In this document: piece by piece, positions 6,234-55,132 of the stretch
Position numbering within the stretch: position 1 is the first letter of the stretch
How the letters are laid out: each line of letters starts with the position of its first letter
NCBI GenBank assembly: GCA_034003245.1
Contig: JAVEYY010000021.1
Location: forward strand, 5,852 to 69,851
Length of the DNA: 64,000 bases
Direction: 5' to 3'
Origin: Tenuifilaceae bacterium
Lineage (GTDB): Bacteria; Bacteroidota; Bacteroidia; Bacteroidales; Tenuifilaceae
Notes under the pieces: generated by a model
Told to the model about the DNA's origin: nothing
Database searches by the model: none
Seen by the model: only the letters and a program-made list of their open reading frames with translations
Program-made: the position numbers and the translations under genes

Positions 6234-6234
6234 T

Positions 6235-9461: not shown

Positions 9462-9472
9462 ATAATTGAGCT

Positions 9473-16366: not shown

Positions 16367-16573
16367 AATTTTTTCATATTTCTCAACATGTGGGATGCAC
16401 TAAAAATACAAAAAGATTCGAGCATAAAACTGAGGGTGAAACTGAATATCCAAAAATAATTAATGGTTGATATTGTAGATTAAATAATTAGCTGTATTTT
16501 TGCATCCCGCTTATTATAACCGTTTGGATCACGGAAAATTAACAGGTATTAACTAAAACAGAGGAGTTTAAAC

Positions 16574-36436: not shown

Positions 36437-37678
36437 ATGAAAAAGGTAGTTGTAGCAATCTTCGTTTTATTAGTAATTGCAGCCATTGCATTTGTTTCCT
36501 TAAAGCCTTTCTTTGCCAACAAGTCGTTCGAGAAAGGCAACATGCTTGCCGATTCGGCACAGTATGATTTGGCCATCGACAAGTTTACCCGCGCCATCTG
36601 GTTCAAGAGCAAAATTGCCCCTTACTACTTTGCCCGCGGTAAAGCTTACGCTGCGCTTAACAACGACCCAGTTGCAATCGAGGATTTCTCCCAGGCTATC
36701 GGTTTAAATCCAGGTGAATCGGACTACTACCTTTTCAGGGGGATTTCGCAGCGGAAGCTTAGAGCTCTCGATCAAGCCATGGAGGATTTAAACAAGGCCA
36801 TTGAGCTAAACGATTCCAGTGCGAAGGCATTTTATCACCGAGGACTCCTTTACGCTTCGCTCAACCAGTACGATCAGGCGGTTAAGGACTACAACAGAAG
36901 CATTGAACTAGATGGTTCAAACATTGAAGCATTTTACAGCCGGGGCGAAACTCGAGGAAATCTTGAAGATTTTATGGGCGCCATTGCCGACTACGATAAG
37001 ATGATTGAGGGTGCCGATGCGCCAATTGATGCCTACAAGCAGCGAGGAATCTTTAAGCTGAAAATTCAGGATTTTGAGGGCGCCGAAAGTGATTTATCGC
37101 GAGCTGCGGAGCTGGAAACCAACGACAAAGAGATCTTTTACCAGCTTGGCCAGGCCAAACACAACCTCAACAAGGTGGATGAATCCATTGAGCTGTTCAA
37201 CAAAGCCCTAAAGCTCGACGCCAAGTACGACTTAGTTTATGGTGCCAGGGGTGGCGCTTATCTCAAGAAAGGAAATTACAAACTTTCCATCGCCGATTTT
37301 ACCAAAGCTGTCGAGCTAAACCCAGATTACAAAAGAGCATACTACGGTCGTGGGATTGCCAAAGCGCTCTCGCAGGATTATGCTGGCTCAATTAAAGACT
37401 TTACCAAGGTTATTGAAATTGATAAGGATTTTGCCCAGGCTTACTACAACAGAGCAGTATCGAAAGCAATCTTAGGACGACATAAGGAGGCTCTTCCCGA
37501 CTATGACATTATTATTCAGCGCGACTCAAGAAATGCCGAAGCCTACTACAATAGGGGTATCTCGCGGATGAACGTTCAGGATACCAAGGGTGCCTGCGAG
37601 GATTTCAAAAAAGCAGTGGACTTGAAATACCAACCCGCAGAGCCTATGCTAAAGATGTACTGCGGATCGCAGGGGTAA
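36437..37678 (+). CDS. Membrane-anchored TPR-repeat protein
   Basis: 413 aa. N-terminal hydrophobic anchor followed by about 10 tandem 34-residue TPR units (recurrent A..Y..RG......A..D...AIELNP pattern). Confidence 0.8.
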   Translation: MKKVVVAIFVLLVIAAIAFVSLKPFFANKSFEKGNMLADSAQYDLAIDKFTRAIWFKSKIAPYYFARGKAYAALNNDPVAIEDFSQAIGLNPGESDYYLFRGISQRKLRALDQAMEDLNKAIELNDSSAKAFYHRGLLYASLNQYDQAVKDYNRSIELDGSNIEAFYSRGETRGNLEDFMGAIADYDKMIEGADAPIDAYKQRGIFKLKIQDFEGAESDLSRAAELETNDKEIFYQLGQAKHNLNKVDESIELFNKALKLDAKYDLVYGARGGAYLKKGNYKLSIADFTKAVELNPDYKRAYYGRGIAKALSQDYAGSIKDFTKVIEIDKDFAQAYYNRAVSKAILGRHKEALPDYDIIIQRDSRNAEAYYNRGISRMNVQDTKGACEDFKKAVDLKYQPAEPMLKMYCGSQG

Positions 37679-37701
37679 GGTTTACCGTAACTTACTTATT
37701 A

Positions 37702-37728
37702 AGCGTGGCCAGTTGCCACGCTTTTTTT
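37702..37728. terminator. Terminator hairpin between the convergent TPR gene and TonB-dependent receptor 1
   Basis: AGCGTGGC-CAGTT-GCCACGCT followed by T7. Confidence 0.8.
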
Positions 37729-37759
37729 ACACCCAGAGAAGCAGTAGTAATAATGAACT

Positions 37760-40156: not shown

Positions 40157-40202
40157 TCTTTATACAATAAGCAATTAATTACAATACGGTTTTGGCTGCA
40201 TT

Positions 40203-41063
40203 CTATTGTGGAGAAATGGTATCGGAAACCGCCTTGGAGTATCCGACAAAAATGCCGCAACCTCCCTTTACGTTTGAATAAAGCGGGATTGCAGGTAAAG
40301 CACCCGTAAAAAAATCGGGGTATAGCGCATCGGTATAAAGCGAGAGCTGCTTTTTATAGCTATAGTAATGCTTGCATACCGAGCGTAGCTCAACAACAAT
40401 TGGAGTATCGTCCTCAATTTGGAGGTTAATATGCATAGTGTAGGTATCTGTAGGCACAAACTCTGTACTAAAAAGGATCAAATCAAGCCCCTCGCTAAGG
40501 AGCACAGGGTCATTAATATTAGCGGGATTAATGCGCCTTTCACTATCGCTCCATACAACAACCTCAAGATATCTTGTATCGTGCTTACTAAAAGTAACCT
40601 CAACTGCATTTTGTAAATCGCCCCAGTAGTTAAACCAAGCGTTCTTAATAAACTTAACGTTCTCTATGGGTGCAGCCAAGGGAACAACGGTTGTCGCCGT
40701 AACCAGATCGTAGCCTGGGACGTTTACCTCGCATTTATACTCGTTTCCCTCCTGCGCTTCGGTAGACGAGTTGTATAAACCTTTGCTTGTATGCTCAAGG
40801 GTTTCGAGCAGATGACCATTTTCATACAAATGCACTTGGGCATTGGTTACATCGGTTAGCTGAGCCGAGTCGATACTACCCGACAACGAAATATGCACCC
40901 ACACCGGTTTTCCTGCTTCAACTATTCCACTGATAGTTGGTTTGGGGGGATGACTGGGAAATTCCCAATCTACCTCTTTCTCGCATGAGGGCATGGTAAC
41001 AACCAATACAAAATAGACAAATATACAGGCAAGTAAGTAATATAAAGGCTTAGTGCTATTCAT
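40203..41063 (-). CDS. DUF4249-like lipoprotein (partner of TonB-dependent receptor 1)
   Basis: 286 aa. Lipobox TMPSC and the C-terminal SNVKGGCGIFVGYS motif characteristic of DUF4249. Sits directly upstream of a CarboxypepD_reg-type receptor. Confidence 0.65.
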   Translation of the reverse strand: MNSTKPLYYLLACIFVYFVLVVTMPSCEKEVDWEFPSHPPKPTISGIVEAGKPVWVHISLSGSIDSAQLTDVTNAQVHLYENGHLLETLEHTSKGLYNSSTEAQEGNEYKCEVNVPGYDLVTATTVVPLAAPIENVKFIKNAWFNYWGDLQNAVEVTFSKHDTRYLEVVVWSDSERRINPANINDPVLLSEGLDLILFSTEFVPTDTYTMHINLQIEDDTPIVVELRSVCKHYYSYKKQLSLYTDALYPDFFTGALPAIPLYSNVKGGCGIFVGYSKAVSDTISPQ

Positions 41064-41072
41064 ATATGAATA

Positions 41073-41657
41073 TTAAAACTTAACCGTTAAACCGTACCTT
41101 AGGCAAGACTCTATGTTATACTCTTCAGGCCGATTATTAAATCCATACTCAACAAAAGCGCCCCAGTATGGGGTAATGTAATAACTAAGCCCTCCGTAAA
41201 GTCCGTAATCGGCCCCATGCCCTTTGTAAACGCTACCCTCAGGTGCTGCCAGGCTAAGACCTCCAAATTTTGCTGATAAATACACATCAAATCGAGGTTC
41301 GGCACTATTGGCAATAAGAGGTAAAAGGTGAAAATTGGCAGTAATACCATAAGTGAATGCATTGGAGTATATAAAAGTGCCCGGGGATATTTGATTATTT
41401 GAAGATTCAGTCTCCTCGGTATTTAAAAAATTAACAAATCTACTATACCCCAGGTAGCCTCCAAACTCAAAAAAATTTGTACCGCCATAAGTCGCTTCTA
41501 ACCTAAAATTGCCCAGCGAAAGATTATAGTCTGATTGCAAATACTTTGGCGTGATACTGTGGCCAAATTTTAAGTTATTGCGCTTGCAAAGGTAATTCTC
41601 CTGTGCTTGAGTTAGGTTTACAGTCAAGATTATCAAAACAAATGTGAAAAACTTCAT
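41073..41657 (-). CDS. Small outer-membrane beta-barrel protein (paralog family of three)
   Basis: 194 aa. Signal peptide ...LTQAQ, alternating beta pattern, NFHLLPL motif and a C-terminal ...YGLTVKF beta-signal. Confidence 0.6.
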   Translation of the reverse strand: MKFFTFVLIILTVNLTQAQENYLCKRNNLKFGHSITPKYLQSDYNLSLGNFRLEATYGGTNFFEFGGYLGYSRFVNFLNTEETESSNNQISPGTFIYSNAFTYGITANFHLLPLIANSAEPRFDVYLSAKFGGLSLAAPEGSVYKGHGADYGLYGGLSYYITPYWGAFVEYGFNNRPEEYNIESCLRYGLTVKF

Positions 41658-42114
41658 ATTATATTTTACTTAGTTAATTTGTTACGTTAAAGATAAGAAG
41701 TAAAGAGGCATTTCTAATTCAATTAAATAATAAGCACTTAAACAATGCCTCTTTAAACTATTAATTATTCAAGTAGATGGGGATTAAAAGTTCTCTCCGC
41801 AACTACCTGTCCTCTATGGTTTTTACCCCACATATCATAAGCCAGAATTGTCTGATTGGGTTGGCCTCACCTCCCTGAGTGATTTAGCAGTTGTTCTATG
41901 GGGGTGGGGCATTTTTGGGGCCAGTTTTTATAAGGGTTCATTTGACCTCCCTCCTTTATTTGCTTTAGGGCTAAGGTTATCCCTGTATCAAGTAGTTTAC
42001 CCTATAATTCCGGGGCGGTATCAACCCCGTCATTTGGTCAATTGCCTTGCAACAACCTATGATTAAGCGTTATAATATTTTTTCCTTGCAAGTAAATATA
42101 TATTAGGTGTATTT

Positions 42115-42190
42115 TTACACGTGTAAATGTAGACAAACATAATATTTACAAGTGACATTACCCCCCCCCTATAGATTATGTTATATAACA
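42115..42190 (-). promoter_or_regulatory. Candidate promoter of cassette 1: palindrome, G9 tract, 19 nt, TAnnTTTG, TTACACGTGTAA palindrome
   Basis: Read on the minus strand: TGTTATATAACA (42179-42190), G9 (42161-42169), a 19-nt spacer, TATGTTTG (42134-42141), then TTACACGTGTAA (42115-42126). Confidence 0.55.
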
Positions 42191-42197
42191 CATCTCA

Positions 42198-42225
42198 CTT
42201 TCAGAGGGAGAGTCTCCCCTCAAAG
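42198..42225 (-). terminator. Imperfect GC hairpin just downstream of EamA copy A
   Basis: CTTTGAGGGGAGACTCTCCCTCTGAAAG on the minus strand. No U-run follows. Confidence 0.35.
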
Positions 42226-42270
42226 CACATAAACGATCTAGAAAGGATTAGTAATTAGATGGCTTAGGGT

Positions 42271-43107
42271 CTATAGCCCTCGCCTACGAATATTCCAGTT
42301 TAGGATTGCCAGCGATAGTCCCACCAAAACCATGCCCAGTATGGCAATTAGCGTGGGGTGCTCGTTGGATAAAATTAGCCAACTAAGCACGGCACCTAGC
42401 ACAGGAATTATAAATTTCCACATGTTAAGGGTTGATAACTTTACACCCGGACGCTTTAATAATGTGTACCATATTGATATAGCTGCAGCCGAAAGAAAAC
42501 TTAGCCAGCCCAACGAGAGCCAGTACTCGAGCGGGAATGGCCCTGAATGAAAATTTTCGGTTATCAACCCTAATACAAAAAGCATGGCTCCGCCAAATAT
42601 CATGGAGAACGAGCTTAGCACCAGCGGTGGAATATGACGCTTATCCTTAGCAACCAACATATTCCCAAATCCCGACAGCAGGTTATTGGCAATTAGGATA
42701 AGAATCCCCACGCTCACCATGGTTCCAGCTGCACCCATCTGCTTGCGGCCAAGGCTAATTATTACAATGCCCAGCAAGCCCACCAGAATACTTGCCACCT
42801 TGCGGCTATTTAGCGTATCGCCAGGCATAAAGAAATGGGCAACAATGGCAATGAAAAGTGGCCCGGAACCAATAATCATAGCGCCCAGCGCTCCGGGAAC
42901 CATATCAACGCCTTTGTAAAACAGGGCGTACTGCAGAAAGGTTTGCACAAAACCCACAAGCAATATCTTGGGAATGTTTAGTTTGGCAACGATAAGTTTT
43001 GCCCGTAAGTCGGGAATAAAGGGAATAATAAGTAGTCCCGACAGGAAAAAGCGAATCCCTGCAAACTGAAAGGGTGTCGTATATTTTAGGCCAATCTTAA
43101 TGCCCAC
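42271..43107 (-). CDS. EamA/DMT-family permease, copy A (5' end disrupted relative to copy B)
   Basis: 278 aa from a GTG start, near-identical to residues 26-303 of copy B. A 5-nt deletion and a TTG-to-TTA change remove the copy-B start, and no ATG/GTG/TTG lies upstream in frame. Confidence 0.6.
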   Translation of the reverse strand: MGIKIGLKYTTPFQFAGIRFFLSGLLIIPFIPDLRAKLIVAKLNIPKILLVGFVQTFLQYALFYKGVDMVPGALGAMIIGSGPLFIAIVAHFFMPGDTLNSRKVASILVGLLGIVIISLGRKQMGAAGTMVSVGILILIANNLLSGFGNMLVAKDKRHIPPLVLSSFSMIFGGAMLFVLGLITENFHSGPFPLEYWLSLGWLSFLSAAAISIWYTLLKRPGVKLSTLNMWKFIIPVLGAVLSWLILSNEHPTLIAILGMVLVGLSLAILNWNIRRRGL

Positions 43108-43236
43108 AAAAGCTGTTGACCACAGTATGCAAGCAACAATGGCGAGGAAAATGGTTGAGAAATGTTTTAATTTTAAAGATGTGGTACCATTAAGTTTGAA
43201 ACCACGTTTTTTGGGGTGGTTATTATAATATTCACA

Positions 43237-43267
43237 GGGTTACTATCCGCTAAGCAGATAGCAACCC
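43237..43267 (-). terminator. Hairpin downstream of TonB-dependent receptor 2
   Basis: GGGTTGCTATC...GATAGTAACCC on the minus strand (one G-U pair). Weak U-tail. Confidence 0.4.
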
Positions 43268-43308
43268 CATAAGTAAAGAGAAGAATTATTCAATATTAAA
43301 CTTCAGCA

Positions 43309-45789
43309 TTACTCATCAAAATACATCCAGTTTCTCCCTCTCCCTTGCTCCTTCCTTTGTTCTTTTCGCTCCTGCTTTCTTTTTGATTTTATCTGGCGGA
43401 AGGCCTTAATATCATCAAAAAAGACCTTGTACGAAATGGTGGGGAGAATAGGGAAAAAACTCAACTGGTAAAGAGAGTAAGGTTCTGCGTCATTAAAACC
43501 TAATTGTGGAATACGAGTATTGTACTGTTCAGTATCGTGCGTAAACATATAGCTGTAAGGATTTTGCCTGTTGTAGGCATTGTACACGGCAAATGTCCAC
43601 TGCGCCTTGTTCCCATACTTGGTTTGGGTTGTGTAATTTAGCGCTAAATCGAGGCGATGGTAAAATCGCATACGCTCGCTATTCCTCTCTCCATAAATAA
43701 ATGCCTCGTAGTAGTAGGTATCATCGCCCCGACTTGTTAGGCTTGGTACATAAGCCCTACCATAAACGGGCGTAAAGGGTAAACCCGACTGGAGCACCCA
43801 CGAAGCACTGAGTGACATCTTATCGCTAATTTTGTGATTAAGGGTAAGCGAAAGGTTATGCGGCCGATCGTAATCGAACAAATACTGCTTTCCATCATTT
43901 ATATTGGGATATTTACGAGTTGACTGCGACCAGCTATACCCCATGAAACCAGTCCAATTGCCCCGTGTTTTACGCACAAACAGCTCCACGCCATAGGCCT
44001 CGCCCTCGCCCCCTGCCTCTACCTTGTTGCGCCAATTGCCATCGCCCATTAGCGATGTGTACCCCTCGCGATAGGTGGCAATATTACGCAATGTTTTGTG
44101 ATATGCGCTCACCTCAACATCCCACATCCCCTTGCCAAAAAAGCCACGCCAGCCTGCTGCAACCTGCTGGGTTGATGCAGGGCTAATTCCATTCCCTGCC
44201 GGCACCCACACCTCGTTGCTCATTATTTCGCCCTGGGTAAATAGCAGGTGCGAGAATTGATTGGCCTTCATGTAGCTAGCGTTAAGGGTATGGTTAGCCC
44301 CTACATGGATGTTGAGGTTTGCCCTGGGCTCAATTTTAAATTTGCTGTACTGCTCCGATACGTATCCCGCAGCACGTGCCCCTATGCGCAATGAAAGTAT
44401 TTTGGGGAACTCTAGCTTGGCCTCGGAATATGCCGATGGTTCAAGCGTATTTATGGTAGGCTGACTAGTTGCTGCCGGATTGTTCGATATGTATATATTA
44501 TTGGGATTGTACCTAAGGTATGCAGTGTGAAGGCCAAAATCGACACCCAAATTTTCGTGAAATTCAGCTGTTAAATCCCACTTATAGGAGATGTCCTGTA
44601 CTATGGATTTAAAGTTTCGCTTAAACTCAAACTTTGAATCGGGGTCGGTGTTAGTATAATTCTGGTTATTTTTTAACCTATAGCGCACAAACGAAAGGCT
44701 TTGCGTAGAGTATAAACTAGGGCTGTGCACTCGGCTCCAACGGGCGGATAGCAACCAGTTTCCCCACACATTTGAGAGCCGTGCCCTTTCGCTACCCGAA
44801 TTACTGCGGTTATAGTACCACCAGTTTATGTAGTCATCGCCCTGATAAAGATTTACGCTTAGGGTGTTTTTTGTATCGGGTCGCCAAGTAAATTTCCCAT
44901 TAACATCATGAAAACCGTACGACAGTATATAATCGCCTCCACCCGAAATCTTACTGGCTAATGCAAGTAATGGGTCAACCAGCGTTTTTCGACCAGCAAC
45001 AATAAAGGTTGAATTTTTTATTGGGGTGGGTCCTTCAAGCAGAAAAGAGGCATCGGTTATGCCAATGCTGTATGCTCCCTTTAGTTTGTTAACATTACCC
45101 TGACGTTGGGCAATATCCATAATTGACGACAGCTTGCCTCCGTAACAGGATGGAAATCCGCCCTTATACACCTTAATGTTATTAATAATATCGGAATTAA
45201 AAACCGAGGTAAATCCGCCCAAATGGTTTACATAAATTAGCGCAATATTATCGAACAGGTAAAGGTTCTCGCCCGGATTGCCACCACGCACCAGAATGGT
45301 GCTTGAGCCCTCGTTCTGCGACTGTATGCCGGGGAGCAGCTGAATGGCCTTCATCACATCGGGCTTTGCCCCCAGCGAGGGCAGCTGCTGCAGCTCCAGG
45401 TTGCTAAGCGATGCCACGCTATGTGTATGTCGCTTGGTATGGGTTACCACCACCTCGTCGATACTATTCTGTGGGTGCAAGAGTATAGTTACGAGCGAAT
45501 CGGTTGGCGTATTAAGGTTTATTGCCACTGGCTTATAGCCAACAAATGATACTGTTAGCTTGCTGTTAGCCTGCACATTGATGCTGAAATAGCCAGTGTT
45601 ATCGGTGGGGACTACCCGCATACGGGTGCTATCAACTATATGTGCTCCCACCAGCACCTCGCGCGTGAGGCTATCGCGGACAAATCCGGCAATACGCTGC
45701 TGAGCAACCACAGAAAAGTTTACGCTACAAAGTAATGCTGATGCTATGAGGTATTTAAAAATCTTCACAATGCTTACCATTTGGGTCAA
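43309..45789 (-). CDS. TonB-dependent receptor 2 (close paralog of receptor 1)
   Basis: 826 aa. Shares long identical runs with receptor 1 (PSLGAKPDVMKAIQLLPGIQ, VRGGNPGENLYL). The terminal strand PTISYKVFF is followed by a 35-aa Lys/Arg/Glu-rich tail. Confidence 0.85.
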   Translation of the reverse strand: MTQMVSIVKIFKYLIASALLCSVNFSVVAQQRIAGFVRDSLTREVLVGAHIVDSTRMRVVPTDNTGYFSINVQANSKLTVSFVGYKPVAINLNTPTDSLVTILLHPQNSIDEVVVTHTKRHTHSVASLSNLELQQLPSLGAKPDVMKAIQLLPGIQSQNEGSSTILVRGGNPGENLYLFDNIALIYVNHLGGFTSVFNSDIINNIKVYKGGFPSCYGGKLSSIMDIAQRQGNVNKLKGAYSIGITDASFLLEGPTPIKNSTFIVAGRKTLVDPLLALASKISGGGDYILSYGFHDVNGKFTWRPDTKNTLSVNLYQGDDYINWWYYNRSNSGSERARLSNVWGNWLLSARWSRVHSPSLYSTQSLSFVRYRLKNNQNYTNTDPDSKFEFKRNFKSIVQDISYKWDLTAEFHENLGVDFGLHTAYLRYNPNNIYISNNPAATSQPTINTLEPSAYSEAKLEFPKILSLRIGARAAGYVSEQYSKFKIEPRANLNIHVGANHTLNASYMKANQFSHLLFTQGEIMSNEVWVPAGNGISPASTQQVAAGWRGFFGKGMWDVEVSAYHKTLRNIATYREGYTSLMGDGNWRNKVEAGGEGEAYGVELFVRKTRGNWTGFMGYSWSQSTRKYPNINDGKQYLFDYDRPHNLSLTLNHKISDKMSLSASWVLQSGLPFTPVYGRAYVPSLTSRGDDTYYYEAFIYGERNSERMRFYHRLDLALNYTTQTKYGNKAQWTFAVYNAYNRQNPYSYMFTHDTEQYNTRIPQLGFNDAEPYSLYQLSFFPILPTISYKVFFDDIKAFRQIKSKRKQERKEQRKEQGRGRNWMYFDE

Positions 45790-46693
45790 TAATTTCCGAT
45801 TTTACCGATGAGTACCCTGTCAGTATCCCGTAGCCATTCTGCACGTTGCTATAGAGATTATAACTACCCGTTACTCCAACCGATAGTAGTGGCTCGCTGG
45901 TTGCCACCTCGTACAGGTACTGCTGCTTTATAAACTTGTAGTAGCTATGGCAAATGGTACGCAGCTCAACCTGTACTGGGAAAAGATTGGTTACCCAACC
46001 AGCATTATTATGGTTTGAGGCGCTGCCCGTTGAGTAATTAATGGTCATGGTGTAGGTGCTACCCTCAATTAGCTCGTTGCTAAACACGGCCATGGGCAAG
46101 CCCTCGTTAAGCAGAACAGGGTCAACAATGTAGAATGGATCAGCACTACCTTTATAATTTTCGCCATTAAAAAGCCTAATAACCACCTCGTAGTAAACGG
46201 TTGTATCGGGTAAATTATCGAAAGTTACCTTAACGGCAGGATAGGTTAACCCCTCCTCATCGACCCCAGCCATATTAATATGTTCAAATTCTACTATGTT
46301 CTGATGCTTGGGAATAACCGTAGAGCATGTGGCTGTTGGGTAGCCGGGTATAGTAACCTCGCAGCGGTACTCGCTATCCTCCTGCGCAACGAGCTCCGAT
46401 TGGTAAAGCCCATCGCCAATGTATTCAAGCGTTTCGGCATACTCGTTGTTAACGTATAGCAGCACTTCAGCGTTATCTACAGCGGGGGTGGGCTCGGCAG
46501 TAAATTTTACTGCAGTTGAAACCATTATGGAAACATGGCTTCCACTCTTAATAACGCCATTAACAACGGGCTTTTGCTCAAATTCGGGTGGGTTCCAGTC
46601 GAGCTTTTTGTGGCAGCTATTGAAAAGAAACACAAAAACCAAGGAAAACCCTACAACACCTCGTATTCCCTTGTTATCAAAACTTATAAGCAT
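45755..46693 (-). CDS. DUF4249-like lipoprotein (partner of receptor 2)
   Basis: 312 aa. Lipobox LFNSC and C-terminal SNVQNGYGILTGYS. Overlaps the receptor start by ~35 nt. Confidence 0.65.
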   Translation of the reverse strand: MLISFDNKGIRGVVGFSLVFVFLFNSCHKKLDWNPPEFEQKPVVNGVIKSGSHVSIMVSTAVKFTAEPTPAVDNAEVLLYVNNEYAETLEYIGDGLYQSELVAQEDSEYRCEVTIPGYPTATCSTVIPKHQNIVEFEHINMAGVDEEGLTYPAVKVTFDNLPDTTVYYEVVIRLFNGENYKGSADPFYIVDPVLLNEGLPMAVFSNELIEGSTYTMTINYSTGSASNHNNAGWVTNLFPVQVELRTICHSYYKFIKQQYLYEVATSEPLLSVGVTGSYNLYSNVQNGYGILTGYSSVKSEIIDPNGKHCEDF

Positions 46694-46703
46694 ACGTTAT
46701 ATT

Positions 46704-47246
46704 TTAAAACTTAAATGATAAACCGTACCTGAGATTTGTATAGCTACCATATCCAAACTCACCATAAACACCAAAATGACGAGTAAAGTAATATGCCGCT
46801 CCTGCGTAAACCCCGTAATCGGAGAAGTACTTATGAGGCAGGGGTGAAAAGTTTTTTCTTTCGGGATTAATACCCCCAAGTTTCCCCGAAACATAAAGGT
46901 CAAACCGTACTTTTTTCTCCTTAACAATTAGTGGCAGAATATGAAAATTAGCATTCAGCCCATAGTTAGTAGCTGCGTAACCTGATATTGTCATACCTGT
47001 GGTTGTCCCAATATTTTCTCTTTTTATATCTTGATAGAAACCAAACCCTGCGTAAACACCAACCTCAATAAAAGGAACTATTTTATAGTTAACCTCACCC
47101 CTAAAGTTTGGGAGGTTATTGTGTGTGTCCTCTGGGTTACTAAGGGAAAAACCCAACTTAGCGTTAATCCTTTTGGGCACGGTATTAACCTGAGCAAAGG
47201 TGTTAATTGATATTAGCAACGAGGCTAAAAGCAAAAGTCTTTTCAT
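46704..47246 (-). CDS. Small outer-membrane beta-barrel protein
   Basis: 180 aa. Signal peptide ...NTFAQ, NFHILPL motif, C-terminal YGLSFKF. Confidence 0.6.
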   Translation of the reverse strand: MKRLLLLASLLISINTFAQVNTVPKRINAKLGFSLSNPEDTHNNLPNFRGEVNYKIVPFIEVGVYAGFGFYQDIKRENIGTTTGMTISGYAATNYGLNANFHILPLIVKEKKVRFDLYVSGKLGGINPERKNFSPLPHKYFSDYGVYAGAAYYFTRHFGVYGEFGYGSYTNLRYGLSFKF

Positions 47247-47263
47247 TTGTTTAATTTTATTTT

Positions 47264-47845
47264 TTAAAACTTTACAACAAACCCATACCTTAAGTTGGGT
47301 TCACTATCGGAAAAATTCACCTTTTTACTTACTCCATACTCAACGTAAACGCCCCAATTCTTGGCAATAAAATAGTTAACACCACCAAGCAAGCCATAGT
47401 CGAACACAGTCCCTTTGTAAAGGCTATTGGCTGGAGCTATCATAGAAATCATTCCCAACTTAGCGCCAACATATAAGTCGATGCGCACTCTTCCTTCTCT
47501 TATTACAAATGGAAGGATATGAAAATTGGTGTTTAACCCATAAAACAAAGCATTGGATTTGTAGGGCGAGCTAAATGTGGTGGGTGTGCTTGGACTTAAA
47601 GGGCCTTCAATATTTTTAAAATTACTATACCCTAAATACAGACCTGGTTCAATAAAATTAAAAAGTACGTAGTTCGCTTCAAACCTTACATTTCCAAATG
47701 CAATATTGTCGCTAAAATCCCAAAACTTTGGGGTGTTTGAGTGACCTAGTTTAAGCGACAACCTCTCGTTAAGAGAGGTGTTTTGGGAAAAACCTATCGC
47801 TGTAAACGTTAGGAAAAACGTTACCAATAAATTAATCTTACTCAT
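47264..47845 (-). CDS. Small outer-membrane beta-barrel protein
   Basis: 193 aa. Signal peptide ...IGFSQ, NFHILPF motif, C-terminal YGFVVKF. Confidence 0.6.
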   Translation of the reverse strand: MSKINLLVTFFLTFTAIGFSQNTSLNERLSLKLGHSNTPKFWDFSDNIAFGNVRFEANYVLFNFIEPGLYLGYSNFKNIEGPLSPSTPTTFSSPYKSNALFYGLNTNFHILPFVIREGRVRIDLYVGAKLGMISMIAPANSLYKGTVFDYGLLGGVNYFIAKNWGVYVEYGVSKKVNFSDSEPNLRYGFVVKF

Positions 47846-48070
47846 AATCTATTTTTAGTTTTACTATTGATATTGAAAAAACCAATGCCGTACAATTAAC
47901 TTCATATGTCATTTGCCTTTAGAAAATAAGCCATTCTACGTATTTGGCTACCACGCATAAGGACACATCAGCCTGCTGGCAAAGACAGGTGAGTAGTTAT
48001 ATAATGAATTCAATAAATGCTTTTGATTGTTTTAGATATTATTTTGTGATTAGCAATGTATTCTTGTAAA

Positions 48071-48127
48071 CAAAACTAGCACTTTATACCAATTTTACCC
48101 CCCCCGTATTTATGTGTTATAAAACAC
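48071..48127 (-). promoter_or_regulatory. Candidate promoter of cassette 2: inverted repeat, G8 tract, 19 nt, TAnnTTTG
   Basis: Read on the minus strand: GTGTTTTATAACAC (48114-48127), G8 (48098-48105), a 19-nt spacer, TAGTTTTG (48071-48078). Confidence 0.55.
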
Positions 48128-48215
48128 ACCAAATACCACAAAAAGAATGAACACGCAACAGAAAAACACCTCACTATGGCAAAGGATTACAGCTGATGGT
48201 TTGCAGCGGGTTGAT

Positions 48216-48256
48216 GAGAGAAAAATCCTGACAGGTTTTAGAAACCTGTCAGGATT
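48216..48256 (-). terminator. Strong rho-independent terminator (minus strand)
   Basis: Perfect 14-15 bp stem AATCCTGACAGGTTT / AAACCTGTCAGGATT with a 3-nt loop, followed on the minus strand by UUUUUCUCUC. Confidence 0.85.
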
Positions 48257-48557
48257 GGCATGCTGCAGCCTCCGGTTAGTAACACTTGCTAATGATAGAC
48301 CAGTTCTGGTGCAACCTACCTTTGACAGGTAAACCTGAGCCGAACGTGGAGTAGCAAGAACTTTACCGAGCAGATGAATATCAGGGCTAAAGCCCATTTT
48401 ACTACAGGTTTTTCCCCTGCCCTAAAGGACAGGGTTATTGGCAGCCACTGCCTATTTACAATTTCAGATTCCTAGTTGGGTTAAGGGCTGTACCTCTGCA
48501 GAACGAAACAGTCCGTGTGCGACTTTAAGTTGCGCCCGGACTTATGCTCAAACCAAC
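48257..48557 (-). ncRNA. Candidate structured RNA or structured 3' UTR downstream of receptor 3 (family unknown)
   Basis: GC-rich for an intergenic region. It has several local hairpins (48510-48542, 48440-48452, 48414-48434, 48384-48395) and ends at the terminator above. The 48414-48434 stem is perfect only as minus-strand RNA (G-U versus C-A). Confidence 0.35.
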
Positions 48558-50912
48558 CTAAAACTTAAAAGTATAGCTAATTGAGGGCATAATTGGGAAA
48601 AGGCTAAAACGATATAACTTGGGTGTATCGTTGTGATATCGTGTAAAATAAAAATAGGGGTTCTTCCTATTGTAAATATTAATGATGCTAAAATCCCAGA
48701 CGCCAACCCAACCCTTATGGTATTTGGTATGTGATATTCCTATATCGGCTCGATGGTATGAACGATCGCGATAGTTGTTAACGCCATCGTAAATAAAAAC
48801 AAAGTTACCCTCGTTATCTTTATACTGCTCAGACGGCAAGCTGTAGGGCAAACCCGTACCAAAAACCCAGGTAAAGGTAAGGCTTAATCTCTCGTTAAGC
48901 TGCTGGTTGTATAGCAACGACAAATTTACCAACCTATCGTACCTAAATGGGAATTCATTGCCGCTGTTAATATCTTTAAACTGTCTACCGGCTTTGGAAA
49001 CCCCAATGCTTACCCAACCCGTTGATGAGCCTTTTAGCTTTTGCAACATCAGCTCAACACCCATTGCACTCCCCTTACCATTGGTGGCTAGTACTTTGGC
49101 AAGGTCGTTCCCCAAAACGTACGACACCCCCTCCTTTAGGTCGGCTAAATTGGAGAGTTTTTTATGGTAAGCCTCTAGGGTTACTTCGTAAAACCCATCG
49201 TAAGCCACATGGTTAAGTCCTAACGACCAAATTTTGCTTGCAGAGGGTGGTGCAAATGCTCCAGCAGGTATCCGATAATCTGTTGGCATACCTGCGCTAT
49301 TGTTTGAGACCAAATGGAAGTGCTGATGCATAACGGAGTACGACCCCTTTAAAGAGGTGTTGCTAGTAATTTTTCTGGACACAAGTATCCGAGGCTCAAT
49401 AAAATTGAATACCTCATCGGTATAGATAAGCTTTTGCGCACGCACCCCAATATTTAAACCAAATCCGTAGTAGTTGCTAAGTATAAACTCACCGTACGCA
49501 CTTGGGCTTAAGGCGCTACCAGAGGTGTAGCCTGTAGCAGCTGGCGCAACCTCACTAGCACCATCGGCCACCTGCTTTATGGTAGTTTGCCCAGGGTTAT
49601 ACCGATGCGAAACAAGGGCGCAACCCAAAAGTATGGTAACCTTATTGCTGACTCTGTAATTGTAATTTATGTTCAAAAAATCATCCCTAACGTTCGATTT
49701 AAAAGATGATTCTACTTCATAGTTCCCAAGGGTTTTAACATCGATATTAGACAGCTCTGAGTACGTGTACGCGGTTGTGCCAACCGTAATGTTCAAGTAG
49801 TTTCGGCTGTTAACAATACGATTAAACCTTAACGCTGCTCCCAAATTACCCCACTGGTTGGTAAGCGATGAGCTTACCGATTCATCGTCCTTGGTTTTCA
49901 CACCCAGCTTATCGTTGCCATTATAAAAGCTAAAGTATAGGCGGCTCTTTTCGGAAATGTGAGTATTTAGTTTTACGTTCATATCGTACATGCTATAGTT
50001 CTCATCAACCTTAAAAATCCAACGTAAAAAGGGAATGGTATTTTTCCGAAGCGATACCAAATAGCCTGCCCTGCCTTTAACAATTGGGCCATGAGCTAAA
50101 ACTTTAGATGTAAGCATTCCCAAGGTAATGCTTTGCCTGTGCTCAGCCATATCGCCATCGAGAGTATGCACATCAACAACTGCCGATAGCCGCCCTCCGT
50201 AGCGAGCGGGGAAAGCACCAACGTAAAATGTTGCATCCTTTACAATATCGGAATTAAAGGTAGAGGTAAAACCACCAAGGTGCGTTACGTGGTACAGGGG
50301 CAACTCATCTAAAAGGAATAGGTTTTGGTCATGGCTGCCTCCCCTAACGTACAAATTACTGTTGCCATCGCCTGCAAGTTGCGTTGCAGGTGCAAGCTGA
50401 TAGTATAGCAGCATATCCTTTTCACCGGCAAAAGATGGCAACCCTGCTAGCTGCCTTGGATTAAGCCTAAATACAGACATCTCTGGCTTTAGCGCGCTCT
50501 TTTTGGAGAAAACCTTAACCTCTCCTATTGAATGGGCCGATGAGGTTAGCTGAATATTGGCAACCTGCTCTTTATGCGGTAAGGTAACTTGCAAAGGAGA
50601 ATACCCTATGTGCGAGAAATAAACATCAACAGAATCCATTCCTTGGGAAAGCCATAACGTGAAATGGCCATAGGCATTAGTTGTTGTGCCTTGCCCCGTT
50701 TTGATGTTTACCACTGAGGCTCCTACAAGCACCTCTTTACTATGAGCATCAATTACGGTACCCGATACAGAAACATTTCTGCTCTGGCTTAAGCCCGTAA
50801 TTGGTTTTACAACTGCCGATAAAAGAACAATCACAACAATTAACCCTGATATTATTGAAGCATTGATGCTAAGTAGTTTCATAAGATTACTAATCGATAG
50901 TTCTAGAGGCAA
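48558..50912 (-). CDS. TonB-dependent receptor 3 (divergent paralog)
   Basis: 784 aa. CarboxypepD_reg-like VSGTVIDAHSKEVLVGASVV, plug block YVRGGSHDQNLFLLDE, and it ends exactly at the beta-signal PSISYTFKF. The start may be the Met at 50882. Confidence 0.85.
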   Translation of the reverse strand: MPLELSISNLMKLLSINASIISGLIVVIVLLSAVVKPITGLSQSRNVSVSGTVIDAHSKEVLVGASVVNIKTGQGTTTNAYGHFTLWLSQGMDSVDVYFSHIGYSPLQVTLPHKEQVANIQLTSSAHSIGEVKVFSKKSALKPEMSVFRLNPRQLAGLPSFAGEKDMLLYYQLAPATQLAGDGNSNLYVRGGSHDQNLFLLDELPLYHVTHLGGFTSTFNSDIVKDATFYVGAFPARYGGRLSAVVDVHTLDGDMAEHRQSITLGMLTSKVLAHGPIVKGRAGYLVSLRKNTIPFLRWIFKVDENYSMYDMNVKLNTHISEKSRLYFSFYNGNDKLGVKTKDDESVSSSLTNQWGNLGAALRFNRIVNSRNYLNITVGTTAYTYSELSNIDVKTLGNYEVESSFKSNVRDDFLNINYNYRVSNKVTILLGCALVSHRYNPGQTTIKQVADGASEVAPAATGYTSGSALSPSAYGEFILSNYYGFGLNIGVRAQKLIYTDEVFNFIEPRILVSRKITSNTSLKGSYSVMHQHFHLVSNNSAGMPTDYRIPAGAFAPPSASKIWSLGLNHVAYDGFYEVTLEAYHKKLSNLADLKEGVSYVLGNDLAKVLATNGKGSAMGVELMLQKLKGSSTGWVSIGVSKAGRQFKDINSGNEFPFRYDRLVNLSLLYNQQLNERLSLTFTWVFGTGLPYSLPSEQYKDNEGNFVFIYDGVNNYRDRSYHRADIGISHTKYHKGWVGVWDFSIINIYNRKNPYFYFTRYHNDTPKLYRFSLFPIMPSISYTFKF

Positions 50913-51858
50913 TATGCATTACAGTATCTACCTTTGCATAACCAGCAAAAATGCCATACCCGCCAACAATATTCGACATAACAGCAACCGGCGGAGCAAT
51001 GCCATACAAAAAATCGCCCTCAACGGCATACATCTGCGTGTATTTTGATGTTTTATAATGAAAATATGCCTTTGAAACGGCACGTAGCTCAACCCTCAGG
51101 TAATGCTCGGGGAACTGGTATCCAGTAAGGGGATTCCAGGAACTTGATGTTTCGTACATAAAATCGACTAGGGCTTCCTGCTGATTTTCGTCAAACCTAA
51201 AAAGTAAGGTTTCCGGATATCCGCTCCCTATAAGCATTAGGTCGGGGTAATAGGTTTCGCGGGTAATTAGCGGGTGGTTCGACTTTAAGGGCGTGGTTGA
51301 GCTGTAAAACTCCAAATCATCGTCATCATCCCAAATCTCGGCAAGATAAAGAGCCACTTCAAAGTATTGACTTTGTGTTACTTCATTTATCGATTTTATG
51401 GAAATACTTACCTGGTTATAAAAATCGTTACCAATAGGTTGCACCGAGGCATCTACTATTAAGGCTGGGTAAGGAATGGTATCGGTAGCAAATGCCTCAA
51501 CATCTCCAGTAGAATTGTACAGTTCTATCCTGTATATACCACCAGACTCATACTCTAATTCGTTTGTTGTAAAAGTGATGTAATCAAAATTATAATTTGG
51601 GGTAAGCGCATACTCATACCCGCTAGTCACATTGGTTATACTAGCGTTAAAATCATCAATTTTGCTAATTGAGGTGGAGTAGGCAGGCTGAGTATGCGTT
51701 ACGTAAACATATGGATTTTTATGCGATACAGTATATGAGCTAATTACAATACTGGGTTTATGCAATACAGATTCAACTTCAACAAGCTCTTCGCATCCCA
51801 CAAAAATTAGCAGCATACACAATAGTAGAATTCTCATTTTAATCGGACTACAACACAC
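50890..51858 (-). CDS. DUF4249-like lipoprotein (partner of receptor 3)
   Basis: 322 aa. Lipobox IFVGC (likely start at the Met at 51837) and C-terminal SNIVGGYGIFAGYA motif. Confidence 0.6.
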   Translation of the reverse strand: MCCSPIKMRILLLCMLLIFVGCEELVEVESVLHKPSIVISSYTVSHKNPYVYVTHTQPAYSTSISKIDDFNASITNVTSGYEYALTPNYNFDYITFTTNELEYESGGIYRIELYNSTGDVEAFATDTIPYPALIVDASVQPIGNDFYNQVSISIKSINEVTQSQYFEVALYLAEIWDDDDDLEFYSSTTPLKSNHPLITRETYYPDLMLIGSGYPETLLFRFDENQQEALVDFMYETSSSWNPLTGYQFPEHYLRVELRAVSKAYFHYKTSKYTQMYAVEGDFLYGIAPPVAVMSNIVGGYGIFAGYAKVDTVMHIASRTID

Positions 51859-51924
51859 CTAGGATTATACTTTTACTAACGATGAGGAAAGGTACTTTAG
51901 TGTACCCTTCCTCAACACTAAGGG

Positions 51925-52686
51925 TTACCAAACAATTGGATTATTGCTCTCCCTAATTTCAAAATTTGAATAGGTATTGGTGTATAACATAACTCCAAGT
52001 CTGTAATATCCAGCTGCACATAGAGGATGCTCCATCTCCCATTCAAAGTTAATGTGACCTTGTTGCCAATTCCACTTTTCATCACAGTGCCATCTGCACA
52101 ACCAACATTTTGTATAACCCCATTTAAAGATAAAACCTGATGGATCGTTGTCAACTGGAAAATATTTCAAGCCAAGGTATTTGCGTTTTATTTTTGCTTT
52201 GTATCCAATGAAATACTGGTCTGGTGGCCATGGGTCTAGACTTTTTGCTGTAATTTCAGCCTTAAATGAAACCACAAATTCTTCTGATTCGTATTCCTCA
52301 GGCATACTTAAAATTTCAATGAAAACTTGAGGCAAATTATCAGTTATATAAACATTTTCATTAAATTGATTATTGGCTGTTGGGATAGAAACAACAGATG
52401 AAAACTCACCTTTATCCTTTAATGGTGTTAAACTAAGCGAAAAAGCATTTGTAAACCCATATAGGGAGACAGAGTCGCTAGATGACAATAGAAAACTAAC
52501 CTTGTTCTTTTTATCATTTAATGAAACATCAACTGTATCGGTAAAGATAAAACATTCATCCTCGATATTGTTAGCAGAGGTAACATAACTGGGTTTGATA
52601 CCACTCTTTTGGCATGAAGATGAAATCAGCAGCAAAATAAGAATACATAATAAACTTACACTTGCACAACTTTTAATTTTAATCAT
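51925..52686 (-). CDS. Hypothetical lipoprotein with a Cys/Trp-rich C-terminus
   Basis: The track ORF extends to 52773, but that extension lies in the duplicated non-coding leader. MIKIKSCASVSLLCILILLLISSSC at 52686 is a proper lipoprotein signal. Confidence 0.55.
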   Translation of the reverse strand: MIKIKSCASVSLLCILILLLISSSCQKSGIKPSYVTSANNIEDECFIFTDTVDVSLNDKKNKVSFLLSSSDSVSLYGFTNAFSLSLTPLKDKGEFSSVVSIPTANNQFNENVYITDNLPQVFIEILSMPEEYESEEFVVSFKAEITAKSLDPWPPDQYFIGYKAKIKRKYLGLKYFPVDNDPSGFIFKWGYTKCWLCRWHCDEKWNWQQGHINFEWEMEHPLCAAGYYRLGVMLYTNTYSNFEIRESNNPIVW

Positions 52687-52975
52687 CGTAATAAGTTTTA
52701 ATTCGACTTTAATTAGTTGAGTTGGCCTCACCTCCCAGAGTGATTTAGCAGTTGTTCTATGGGGGTGGGGCATTTTTTTAGCCAGTTTTTATAAGGGTTC
52801 ATTTGACCTCCCTCCTTAATTTGTTACAGGACTAAGGTTATCCCTGTATCAAGTAGTTTACCCTATAATTTCGGGGCGGTATCAACTCCGTCATTTGGTC
52901 AATTGCCTTGCAACAACCTATGATTATGCATTATAATATTTTTTCCTTATATGTAAATATATATTAGGTGTATTT

Positions 52976-53048
52976 TTACACGTGTAAATGTAGACAAACA
53001 TAATATTTACAAGTGACATTACCCCCCCAGAGATTATGTTATATAACA
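52976..53048 (-). promoter_or_regulatory. Candidate promoter of cassette 3: palindrome, G7 tract, 19 nt, TAnnTTTG, TTACACGTGTAA palindrome
   Basis: Read on the minus strand: TGTTATATAACA (53037-53048), G7 (53022-53028), a 19-nt spacer, TATGTTTG (52995-53002), then TTACACGTGTAA (52976-52987). Confidence 0.55.
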
Positions 53049-53055
53049 CATCTCG

Positions 53056-53083
53056 CTTTCAGAGGGAGAGTCTCCCCTCAAAG
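53056..53083 (-). terminator. Imperfect GC hairpin just downstream of EamA copy B
   Basis: Same element as 42198-42225. Confidence 0.35.
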
Positions 53084-53128
53084 CACATAAACGATCTAGA
53101 AAGGATTGGTAATTAGATGGCTTAGGGT

Positions 53129-54040
53129 CTATAACCCCCGCTTACGAATATTCCAATTTAGGATTACTAGCGATAGTCCCACCAAAACCATGCCCAGTAT
53201 GGCAATTAGCGTGGGGTGCTCGTTGGGTAAAATTAGCCAGCTTAGCACGGCACCAAGCACGGGAATTATAAATTTCCACATGTTAAGGGTTGATAGTTTT
53301 ACACCTGGACGCTTTAATAATGTGTACCAAATTGATATGGCTGCAGCCGACAGGAAGCTAAGCCAGCCCAACGATAACCAGTATTCTAGAGGGAATGGCC
53401 CTGAATGAAAGTTTTCGGTTATCACACCTAAAACAAAAAGCATGGCTCCGCCAAAAATCATGGAGAACGAGCTGAGCACCAGCGGCGGAATATGGCGATT
53501 GTCGTTAGCAACCAGCATATTCCCAAAACCAGCCAATAAATTATTGGCAATCAGGATTAGAATACCTATGCTTACCATGGTTCCAACAGCGCCCATCTGC
53601 TTTCGTCCAAGGCTAATTATTGTAATACCCAGCAATCCCACAAGAATACTTGCAATCTTGCGGCGGTTAAGCATGTCGCCAGGCATAAAGAAATGGGCAA
53701 CAATGGCTATGAAAAGTGGCCCAGAACCAATAATCATAGCGCCCAGCGCACCGGGAACCATATCTACTCCTCTGTAAAAAAGAGCATACTGCAGAAAGGT
53801 TTGCACAAAACCCACAAGCAATATCTTAGAAATGTTTTGCTTGGCAACCATAAGTTTTGCACGTAAATCGGGAATAAAGGGAATAATAAGTAGTCCCGAC
53901 AGGAAAAAACGAATACCCGCAAACTGAAAGGGTGAGGTGTATTTTAGGCCAATCTTAATGCCCACAAATGCGGTTGACCAAAGTATGCAAGCAACAATGG
54001 CGAGGAAAATGGTTGAGCTAAGAAATGTTTTAATTTTCAA
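53129..54040 (-). CDS. EamA/DMT-family permease, copy B (full length)
   Basis: 303 aa (TTG start), about 10 TM helices, with two EamA-like halves. Confidence 0.85.
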   Translation of the reverse strand: MKIKTFLSSTIFLAIVACILWSTAFVGIKIGLKYTSPFQFAGIRFFLSGLLIIPFIPDLRAKLMVAKQNISKILLVGFVQTFLQYALFYRGVDMVPGALGAMIIGSGPLFIAIVAHFFMPGDMLNRRKIASILVGLLGITIISLGRKQMGAVGTMVSIGILILIANNLLAGFGNMLVANDNRHIPPLVLSSFSMIFGGAMLFVLGVITENFHSGPFPLEYWLSLGWLSFLSAAAISIWYTLLKRPGVKLSTLNMWKFIIPVLGAVLSWLILPNEHPTLIAILGMVLVGLSLVILNWNIRKRGL

Positions 54041-54115
54041 AACTTGGAAGTAATTTTGCTTGAAGTAATTTTTTAGAAAATTGACAAATCATACTTAAGA
54101 AAGATTACCCTCTGT

Positions 54116-55132
54116 CTAAGCCCAAGGTGAGGGATTAATGCTCTCGTCCTGGACAAATCCGGAATACTTCTCGGCAACCAGCGATAGCAAATCGTTCAGC
54201 TCATTTGGGCAATCGGTGGTAACGAGCTTAAGCCTTATCTCCTTAAAGTTGGGCAAACCCTTAAAGTAGCTGGTAAGGTGTCGGCGAAGCTCAAGAATTC
54301 CTCGTCGCTCCCCTTTAAACTCAATGGATTTTTGAAGATGCTCCTTTGCAATATCCACCTTCTCCTCAACAGAAAAAGGTTTCATTCGTTCGCCAGTTTG
54401 CATATAGTGTTTAATCTCCCTAAAAACCCAGGGTCGTCCGTAGGTTGCGCGACCAATCATAATGGCGTCAACGCCATATCGATTGAAGTAATCCACCGCC
54501 TTTTCAGGCCCATCGATATCGCCATTGCCAATAATTGGGATATGCATACGGGGATTTGCCTTTACCTCTCCAATAAGAGTCCAGTCGGCCTCGCCCTTAT
54601 ACAGTTGAGCACGGGTGCGGCCATGAATGGTAAGAGCCTTTATGCCTACATCCTGCAATCGCTCTGCAATCTCAACGATCTGCTTGGTGCTATCGTCCCA
54701 GCCCAAGCGTGTCTTAACGGTTACTGGCAGATGAGTTGCATTAACAATCTGGCGGGTCATCTCCACCATCTTGGGGATATCCTTCATCATTCCAGAACCC
54801 GCTCCGCGGTTGGCAATCTTTTTCACCGGGCAACCAAAGTTGATATCAACAACGTCGGGGTTGGCTTCGGCAGCCATCTTACAAGCCTCCACCATGCTCT
54901 CGATAATGTGGCCGTAAAGCTGAATCCCAATTGGTCGTTCGTGCTCAAAGATGTTTAACTTTGTCTGACAGCTGCTAGCATCTCTTATCAGTCCATCGGA
55001 GTTCACAAACTCGGTGAACATCATATCGGCACCAAACCGCTTGCAAAGATATCGGAACGACGGATCGGTAACATCTTCCATGGGCGCCAGGAAGAGAGGC
55101 TTATCACCTAGATCTAAATTATGTATTCTCAC
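54116..55132 (-). CDS. dusB: tRNA-dihydrouridine synthase
   Basis: 338 aa. LAPMEDVTDPSFRYLCKRFGADMMFTEF, DINFGCPVKK, LTIHGRTRAQ. Confidence 0.9.
   Translation of the reverse strand: MRIHNLDLGDKPLFLAPMEDVTDPSFRYLCKRFGADMMFTEFVNSDGLIRDASSCQTKLNIFEHERPIGIQLYGHIIESMVEACKMAAEANPDVVDINFGCPVKKIANRGAGSGMMKDIPKMVEMTRQIVNATHLPVTVKTRLGWDDSTKQIVEIAERLQDVGIKALTIHGRTRAQLYKGEADWTLIGEVKANPRMHIPIIGNGDIDGPEKAVDYFNRYGVDAIMIGRATYGRPWVFREIKHYMQTGERMKPFSVEEKVDIAKEHLQKSIEFKGERRGILELRRHLTSYFKGLPNFKEIRLKLVTTDCPNELNDLLSLVAEKYSGFVQDESINPSPWA

Follow-up and report, generated by a model that had tools for sequence, protein, structure and literature searches.

Three predicted promoter elements, A, B, and C, are found in the 64-kb stretch of DNA analyzed here (the window), and each precedes a minus-strand operon as delineated by Pfam, NCBIfam, and paralogy. 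The three operons are paralogous cassettes comprising a TonB-dependent receptor, a DUF4249 lipoprotein, and small outer-membrane barrels (Table 1). DUF4249 proteins have been proposed to be lid lipoproteins of non-SusC TonB-dependent transporters in Bacteroides (bioRxiv 10.1101/2023.03.17.533168). A capsule locus (UpxY, Wza, and Wzc) was also considered and ruled out, as Pfam gave receptor cassettes. In cassette C, the ORF start assigned mechanically to the first gene (MPHPHRTT…), at 52773, falls inside the conserved leader described below, and the true start is probably the ATG at 52689 (MIKIKSCASVSLLCILILLLISSSC…), giving a lipoprotein signal peptide.

At the DNA level, the cassette genes (43303-47258 and 37745-41609) are 87-95% identical to Perlabentimonas gracilis or Tenuifilaceae-type contigs, the comparison being that of the window with L005, L008, L014, L019, and L024, whereas the EamA and TPR genes that flank the cassettes are just 74-83% identical to the same relatives. 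The cassettes seem to be either mobile between genera or much more constrained than their housekeeping flanks. Elsewhere in the window, positions 757-9856 encode two CheR-like methyltransferases, a CheB methylesterase domain protein, PAS/GAF proteins, a PAS-GAF-SpoIIE phosphatase, a DUF6272 protein, and a SiaC-like phosphoprotein, a cluster that looks like a chemosensory-like and partner-switch signaling module in a Bacteroidales genome.

Table 1. Features of the cassette 2 locus and of the sister promoters, in window coordinates
Feature	Position	Strand	Basis or remark
Cassette 2 (B) operon	43309..47845	-	Pfam, paralogy, NCBIfam
B1, small outer-membrane beta-barrel (OMP_b-brl)	47264-47845	-	Pfam
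B2, small outer-membrane beta-barrel (OMP_b-brl)	46704-47246	-	Pfam
B3, DUF4249 lipoprotein	45755-46693	-	Pfam
B4, TonB-dependent receptor	43309-45789	-	Pfam
Cassette C: lipoprotein, DUF4249 protein, receptor	52773..48558	-	Pfam
Intrinsic terminator, strong (15-bp perfect stem and T run)	48224..48256	-	closes cassette 3 (C), insulates promoter B
Conserved block adjoining the palindrome upstream (…GCTGCAAACCATCAGCTGTAATCCTTTGCC…TTTTCTGTTGCGTG…)	48130..48210	-	sequence conservation
Palindrome TGTGTTTTATAACACA (6-bp arms, 4-bp center)	48113..48128	-	putative operator of a dimeric regulator
G8 homopolymeric tract	48098..48105	-	ends exactly 19 nt before the -7 box; -33 TTG slot
19-nt spacer TAAAATTGGTATAAAGTGC	48079..48097	-	3′ part ATAAAGTGC kept among B-type promoters
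-7 box TAGTTTTG	48071..48078	-	fits the Bacteroidota sigma-A consensus TAnnTTTG
Predicted transcription start, ~48066, inside conserved TTTGTTTACA	48064..48067	-	from the box position, -12..-5
Conserved initial transcribed block of B-type promoters, ACAAGAATACATTGCTAATCACAAAATAATATCTAAAACAATCAAAAGCATTTATTGAATTCATT	48001..48063	-	similarity of relatives stops at 48001
Window-specific cassette 2 leader	47846..48000	-	stands in place of the conserved leader of relatives
Sister promoter A: TGTGTTATATAACATA, 7 nt, G9 (42161-42169), 19 nt, TATGTTTG (42134-42141)	42134..42192	-	
Sister promoter C: TGTGTTATATAACATA, 6 nt, G7 (53022-53028), 19 nt, TATGTTTG (52995-53002)	52995..53050	-	

Architecture of the predicted cassette 2 promoter and its sister copies

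Promoter B reads, on the minus strand from 48128 to 48071, as the palindrome TGTGTTTTATAACACA, 7 nt (TAAATAC), G8, 19 nt, and TAGTTTTG. The palindrome has a 14-nt form, GTGTTTTATAACAC (window 48127..48114, minus strand), which is extendable to the 16-mer with 6-bp arms (48128..48113); when the shorter form is used, the stretch between palindrome and tract is ATAAATAC (8 nt). A first-pass annotation of this DNA had described the same motif plan, and re-reading of the sequence finds both plan and coordinates correct, with the orientation being that of the minus strand. The terminator of cassette C (48256..48224) lies ~100 nt upstream of promoter B, and the conserved block between the two possibly contains further regulatory sites.

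In Bacteroidota, the -7 box of the primary sigma factor has the sequence TAnnTTTG (PMC9723704; PMC4747536), and in Flavobacterium it is positioned at -12..-5 (PMC9723704). In the window, TAGTTTTG is the only exact -7 box between the cassette 3 terminator and the start of B1, which it precedes by 226 nt, and since the box spans -12..-5, the transcription start is predicted near 48066. A canonical promoter upstream of rplM (16473-16502), TTG-N19-TATTTTTG, likewise has a 19-nt spacer, so the last G of the tract in promoter B occupies the position of the -33 G. Neither TTTG nor TTG is present in this slot, which holds the 3′ end of the tract (GGG), only the final G of which fits. Because the core promoter is without a proper -33 element, help from an upstream-bound factor is plausible. 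From its sequence, 48128..48071 (-) can be predicted with good confidence to be the promoter of the cassette 2 operon, of the Bacteroidota sigma-A type.

Assembled contigs from RNA-labeled metagenome runs pass straight through promoter B, and contigs that span the promoter in this way reflect DNA or read-through. The sigma-70 promoter scanner is uninformative for Bacteroidota. A sigma-54 reading (GG…GC in the spacer) was rejected by inspection, the spacing being 8 nt and not 10, and Rfam covariance models run over 37000-55000 returned no family at E ≤ 1 except for a spurious miRNA match on the terminator hairpin.

Promoters A and C sit within a near-identical duplication that takes in a long leader as well as the 3′ end of the gene for an EamA transporter. 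The flanks of promoter B are unrelated to those of A and C, and the earlier statement that the cassette 2 copy lies outside the EamA/leader duplication is borne out, only A and C being duplicated. In an ungapped, binned comparison of A with B, identity is 9/10 at the palindrome and 7/10 and 6/10 at the -7 box and start region, and elsewhere it is ~29%, which equals the shuffle background. With at most one mismatch, TGTGTTWTAWAACA has six matches in the window (three sites on two strands) vs 0.12 expected from shuffles, and the composite GTT-N4-AAC, N8-14, G≥5 is found in the 64 kb at promoters A, B, and C only.

The exact spacing that had been attributed to the motif is seen in one of its intervals: from the end of the G tract to the box there are exactly 19 nt in all three cassette promoters of the window. 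It is not seen in the tract itself (G9, G8, and G7 in A, B, and C) or in the distance from the AACA end of the palindrome to the box (37, 36, and 34 nt in A, B, and C), which differs among the three promoters because the tracts differ. Relative to the predicted starts, the palindromes are centered at -55.5 in A, -54.5 in B, and -52.5 in C. Seven consecutive G:C pairs occur at just one further site in the window, 61536-61542, a possible frameshift-type switch inside a glycosyltransferase-like gene (61014-62309, minus strand) beside a UDP-GlcNAc 2-epimerase gene.

Promoters and leaders in related genomes

A scan of 185,579 species genomes for the palindrome, N6-12, G6, N17-24, and TAnnTTTG gave 14 matches, with ~8 chance matches estimated for uniform composition. 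Bacteroidales account for 12 of the 14, all with G7-G10, and the two matches in other phyla have exactly G6 and look like chance. Five clear homologues of promoter B are found, in UBA2295, Perlabentimonas gracilis (two), a Tenuifilaceae MAG, and one other MAG (L004, L005, L008, L010, and L014). All five precede the same cassette type, and their conservation runs ~65 nt beyond the start. The B-type promoter region is conserved at 83-88% vs 78-83% for the adjacent EamA gene. This recurrence of the B-type plan in front of the same cassette type in other genera supports the view, taken in the first-pass annotation, that the motif is retained for function rather than by hitch-hiking on a duplication. 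Because relatives carry it, the cassette 2 promoter is not an isolated retention but the common type of these cassettes.

In a scan of metagenomes with the flanks anchored, the tract left free, and the palindrome required, every true homologue has G7-G9. As the palindrome was required in both scans, its association with G tracts is partly by construction, and L001, L003, L006, L009, and L012 therefore support the mutability of the tract and not a shared regulator. If G-tract promoters were common, several palindrome co-occurrences could, by estimate, arise by chance.

An unbiased sample was drawn by searching with the DUF4249 protein B3 and inspecting eight homologue contigs. Six of the eight more distant cassette families have no G tract (L027/28, L029, L030/31, L032, L034, and L038). 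The L025 promoter (2976) has G11 located 24 nt before TACTTTTG, and the promoter of the second cassette of L036 (12705) has G15 located 14 nt before TATTTTTG, each with a degenerate palindrome; given these spacings, the placement of the tract in the -33 slot is not universal. The G tract is thus recurrent yet confined to certain lineages. In L030, which is without a G tract, the palindrome ATGTTATTTAACAT is located 42 nt upstream of the box, suggesting that palindrome and tract are separable parts. Across families, the palindrome-to-box distance ranges from 32 to 42 nt with no clear helical periodicity. The tract-to-box spacers in this cassette family (14, 19, and 24 nt) go in steps of 5 nt. 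In L029, a G8 run at 2103 lies in the 100-nt gap between cassette genes one and two, with no -7 box after it.

A leader of ~200-250 nt that hardly varies from genus to genus separates the promoter from the first gene in copy A (42061..41860) and copy C (52922..52721) of the window, both on the minus strand, as well as in L004, L005, L008, L010, L014, and L025. The leader begins with CATAKGYYRTTGCAAGGCAAT, includes GGCGGGGTTGATACCGCCCC and AAGGAGGGAGG, and ends with GCCCCACCCCC…GGGAGGTGAGGCCAAC. RNAalifold predicts five or six hairpins, and there is no Rfam match; a covariation test is uninformative (one compensatory pair in 52) because the leader is too invariant. The leader may be an undescribed cis-regulatory RNA of the receptor cassettes. 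Its last hairpin is also visible in distant cassettes whose DUF4249 proteins are only 53-62% identical (L030 at ~1456, and L036 at ~5162 and ~13001, one of the L036 copies lying downstream of the G15 promoter; the window copies are at 52770 and 41909). This hairpin is composed of a stem, GCCCCACCCC(C)/GGGGYGAGGC, with a constant C·A mismatch, and a loop with the words CUAAAUCA/GAAAUCA/AAAAUCA, of which AAAUCA is invariant in all variants.

Cassette B of the window is without the conserved leader, whereas the B-type promoters of relatives are followed by the A/C-type leader. Contigs in X3, X4, X6, and X25 switch to the conserved leader at 48001. Between the points corresponding to 48001 and 47252, the relatives (L005; X3, X4, X6, and X25) have ~1440 nt comprising the leader, a gene for a 362-aa lipoprotein, and a 203-aa gene, and the window has 748 nt of different sequence, consisting of its own leader and B1. 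Judged from this comparison, cassette B of the window is a recombinant that departs from its relatives between 48001 and ~47252 (minus strand). Cassette A retains the conserved leader and is without the lipoprotein gene, the leader being joined at ~41860 to other sequence. This segment (41860..41657) contains a possible attenuator, a hairpin with 12-bp arms (41701-41712 and 41744-41755) and a T-rich stretch after it, immediately ahead of the first gene.

Upstream of promoter B, ~400 nt (48130-48523) are 84-89% conserved in P. gracilis and other relatives and have no Rfam match. The P. gracilis counterpart sits between EamA and the promoter. A 183-nt segment of this region, 48262-48444, is missing in contigs of X2, X25, X26, and X28, with a short CCAAT repeat at its bounds. 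Contig depth is raised several-fold at the terminator hairpin (48224-48256), as though the hairpin were a REP-like element present in multiple copies.

Tract length and the readings of the element

Because the data consist of assembled contigs only, tract length is seen to differ from one population, strain, or paralogue to another; minor variants are lost from Logan contigs, which present one length per population. Overall, lengths of G6-G11, and once G15, are observed, and in three unrelated promoter families sequences that are otherwise identical differ solely, or almost solely, in the length of the tract. Within one population series, L017 (G7) and L019-L022 (G8) are 99.6-99.7% identical over ~7 kb, with a total of 2-3 indels, all of them in simple repeats (the G tract, copies of an 11-nt repeat, and an A4/A5 run). 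In Paramuribaculum intestinale (L001), 551 nt are identical in eight mouse or rat gut metagenomes bar the tract, four having G10 and the other four G9, a split that largely tracks the study of origin. The Porphyromonadaceae promoter L012 has G9 in the reference, and two wastewater runs have G7 instead. Among related populations, promoters of the window type have G6 and G9 (X3), G9 (X25 and X26), and G8 (X1, X4, and X6), and a variant of the C-type promoter in run X2 has G10, three G's more. In the window, the otherwise near-identical paralogues A and C have G9 vs G7. Runs of at least seven G's number 27 in the 252 kb of compared DNA, and 21 of them are these promoters. On the strength of these alignments, the tract is very probably hypermutable.

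The L001 promoter drives a DUF3575/DUF3868 operon, and the operons of L001 and L012 carry DUF3575, DUF3868, and Mfa2-like genes. Among the other indels of the L017 comparison, the 11-nt tandem repeat CCTGCCTTTGC (L017 ~4439-4462) differs in copy number from L019, L021, and L022, and the A4/A5 run sits inside the first cassette gene.

The reading that we favor, as somewhat more probable than not, is a slippage switch or dimmer that alters the distance between an operator and a core promoter without a -33 box. Replication slippage would add G's to, or remove them from, the hypermutable homopolymer, and because the tract borders the core promoter on its upstream side, spacer and box would be left unchanged. 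Each step of one G would shift the palindrome, the presumed operator of a dimeric regulator, by one bp with respect to RNA polymerase, corresponding to a helical rotation of ~34 degrees, such that the tract would set both the distance and the helical phase of the operator. As distance and phase would change with the tract, expression would be switched or dimmed heritably, reversibly, and cassette by cassette, and the three promoters of the window would represent three settings, G9, G8, and G7. An effect of tract length on expression is somewhat more probable than none; operator spacing as the specific mechanism is proposed tentatively.

Three of the features by which an SSR promoter switch is recognized are found here, namely a tract of at least ~7 nt at the core promoter, length polymorphism, and envelope cargo. 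Surface and outer-membrane structures are the usual cargo of contingency loci. The first-pass annotation had envisaged a dispersed regulon with a candidate regulator; this part did not hold up, as neither the window nor the relatives have the motif anywhere but at these cassettes, and no regulator gene is nearby, a search of the window and the related loci having returned no DNA-binding protein near the cassettes.

The main live rival, although a less probable one, is an ordinary regulated promoter whose tract has a constant structural or contact role, for instance as a rigid spacer, in place of the -33 element, or within a regulator site, and in which the length differences are near-neutral mutational noise without a switching role. 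Consistent with a fixed element, the tract is narrow in all B-type orthologues (G7-G9), assemblies contain one length per population, with the P. intestinale lengths largely following studies, and many homologous cassettes are without a tract and evidently functional. A homopolymer of 7-15 G's is, however, intrinsically prone to slippage, the length is the sole or near-sole difference in three unrelated promoter families, and three paralogous promoters of one genome have three lengths; G11 and G15 in relatives are also hard to square with a fixed contact. Since the tract length is itself polymorphic, the slippage switch is the more informative reading.

It is improbable that palindrome and tract form a recombination or module boundary at which promoters, leaders, and cassettes are shuffled. 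The loci are indeed mosaic, with relatives joining B-type promoters to the A/C-type leader at the sharp breakpoint at 48001; in some relatives similarity begins only at the palindrome, and the identity of the cassettes between genera (91-95%) is higher than that of the flanks (74-83%). The breakpoints, however, fall outside both tract and palindrome, ~70 nt downstream of the start, and conservation in L004, L005, and L010/L019/L021 extends ~80 nt upstream of the palindrome. Neither a recombinase gene in the window nor inversion or excision joints at the motif were found.

Slightly less probable still is that the shared motif is a functionless leftover of an old promoter-region duplication that has hitch-hiked to the present. 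The cassettes are paralogous, and their promoters could therefore share ancestry, but the similarity is restricted to discrete blocks at fixed positions, with the remainder at the 29% background, the same blocks are kept in other genera, and the B-type promoter region (83-88%) is better conserved than the neighboring EamA gene (78-83%).

An invertible promoter, the classical phase-variation device of Bacteroidales, is suggested by the invertases that control phase-variable outer-membrane receptor loci of Bacteroides (PMC11868660; bioRxiv 10.1101/521070), and was rejected as far as the data allow, with hardly any probability remaining to it: the three promoters have no convincing flanking inverted repeats of 15-30 bp (the best pair, 13 nt with one mismatch or 92%, has one arm inside B1 and is not kept in homologues), four to eight runs contain no strand-changing joints, and the neighboring genes encode no recombinase domain.

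If the slippage reading is true, single-base indels in promoters govern the expression of outer-membrane receptors and fimbria-like structures, which are candidate gates for phages, bacteriocins, and nutrients. The switched operons would include TonB-dependent receptor cassettes and fimbria-like operons, set individually by slippage, and inverton-based metagenome surveys would miss all of these loci; most metagenome pipelines filter out or ignore such indels. The presence of the element upstream of fimbria-like operons in gut genera adds to its interest. For Bacteroidales more widely, including gut genera such as Paramuribaculum and probably Prevotella, a poly-G tract between a palindromic operator and a -33-less sigma-A core may constitute a second, hitherto undescribed route to phase variation next to invertible promoters, a generalization to which we assign a little less than an even chance. 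Cultured carriers of the element, Perlabentimonas gracilis M08_MB and Paramuribaculum intestinale DSM 100749, make it directly testable.

Comparison with known systems

Homopolymer promoter switches are a well-known kind of element, and a full-text literature search found no earlier account of one from Bacteroidota. Among Bacteroidales, phase variation is at present ascribed to DNA inversion, and the systems named for Bacteroides in a 2025 review are all invertase systems (PMC11868660). Similar to the element described here, the invertible promoters and shufflons of Bacteroides are found in the same order, have surface lipoproteins, barrels, and TonB-dependent receptors as cargo (PMC11868660; PMC4747536), and occur as multiple paralogues per genome that are switched independently. 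The difference is that those loci are switched by recombinase inversion between inverted repeats, features of which none is found here.

The palindrome can be compared with CRP/FNR sites (TGTGA-N6-TCACA or TTGAT-N4-ATCAA), which in Escherichia coli are centered at -61.5 in class I and at -41.5 in class II promoters. As in TGTGA-N6-TCACA sites, a 16-bp palindrome with a TGTG-N8-CACA frame here lies ahead of a promoter whose upstream element is poor. Only this outer TGTG/CACA frame is common to the two, the inner bases being TT/AA here vs A/T, and the predicted centers of -52.5 to -55.5 match neither -61.5 nor -41.5. No CRP/FNR gene was identified among the genes of the window.

In Neisseria meningitidis, the porA, opc, and fetA promoters contain homopolymers between the -10 and -35 elements, and FetA is a TonB-dependent receptor. 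As in the reading proposed here, a repeat in the promoter alters the spacing of elements and leads to graded or on/off expression of an outer-membrane protein. In porA, opc, and fetA the tract is inside the core spacer, whereas here it adjoins the upstream end of a spacer that is constant at 19 nt. The nadA promoter of Neisseria meningitidis contains a TAAA tract between NadR operators (PMC2791445), and the arrangement observed here is nearer to those of nadA and fim than to those of porA, opc, and fetA.

The closest analogue is provided by the C-stretch promoters of the Bordetella fim genes. The fim2, fim3, and fimX promoters of Bordetella pertussis are composed of a "fim box" activator site, a poly-C "C-stretch", and a -10 element, and the length of the tract varies between strains and changes the transcription of genes for a surface structure (PMC1891110). 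In Bordetella, as here, a homopolymeric G:C tract is placed between an upstream regulator site and the core promoter, in the region of the upstream hexamer (PMC1891110), and several paralogous promoters of one genome have different lengths. The main differences are the phylum, the core elements (-35/-10 of sigma-70 there vs -33/-7 of Bacteroidota sigma-A here), the tract lengths (7-22 there vs 6-11, once 15, here), and the regulator, which is BvgA in Bordetella; length-dependent transcription was measured there and is inferred here. Because its logic is that of Bordetella fim and Neisseria nadA, the element upstream of cassette 2 is read as a putative switch or rheostat that would be set separately for each cassette.
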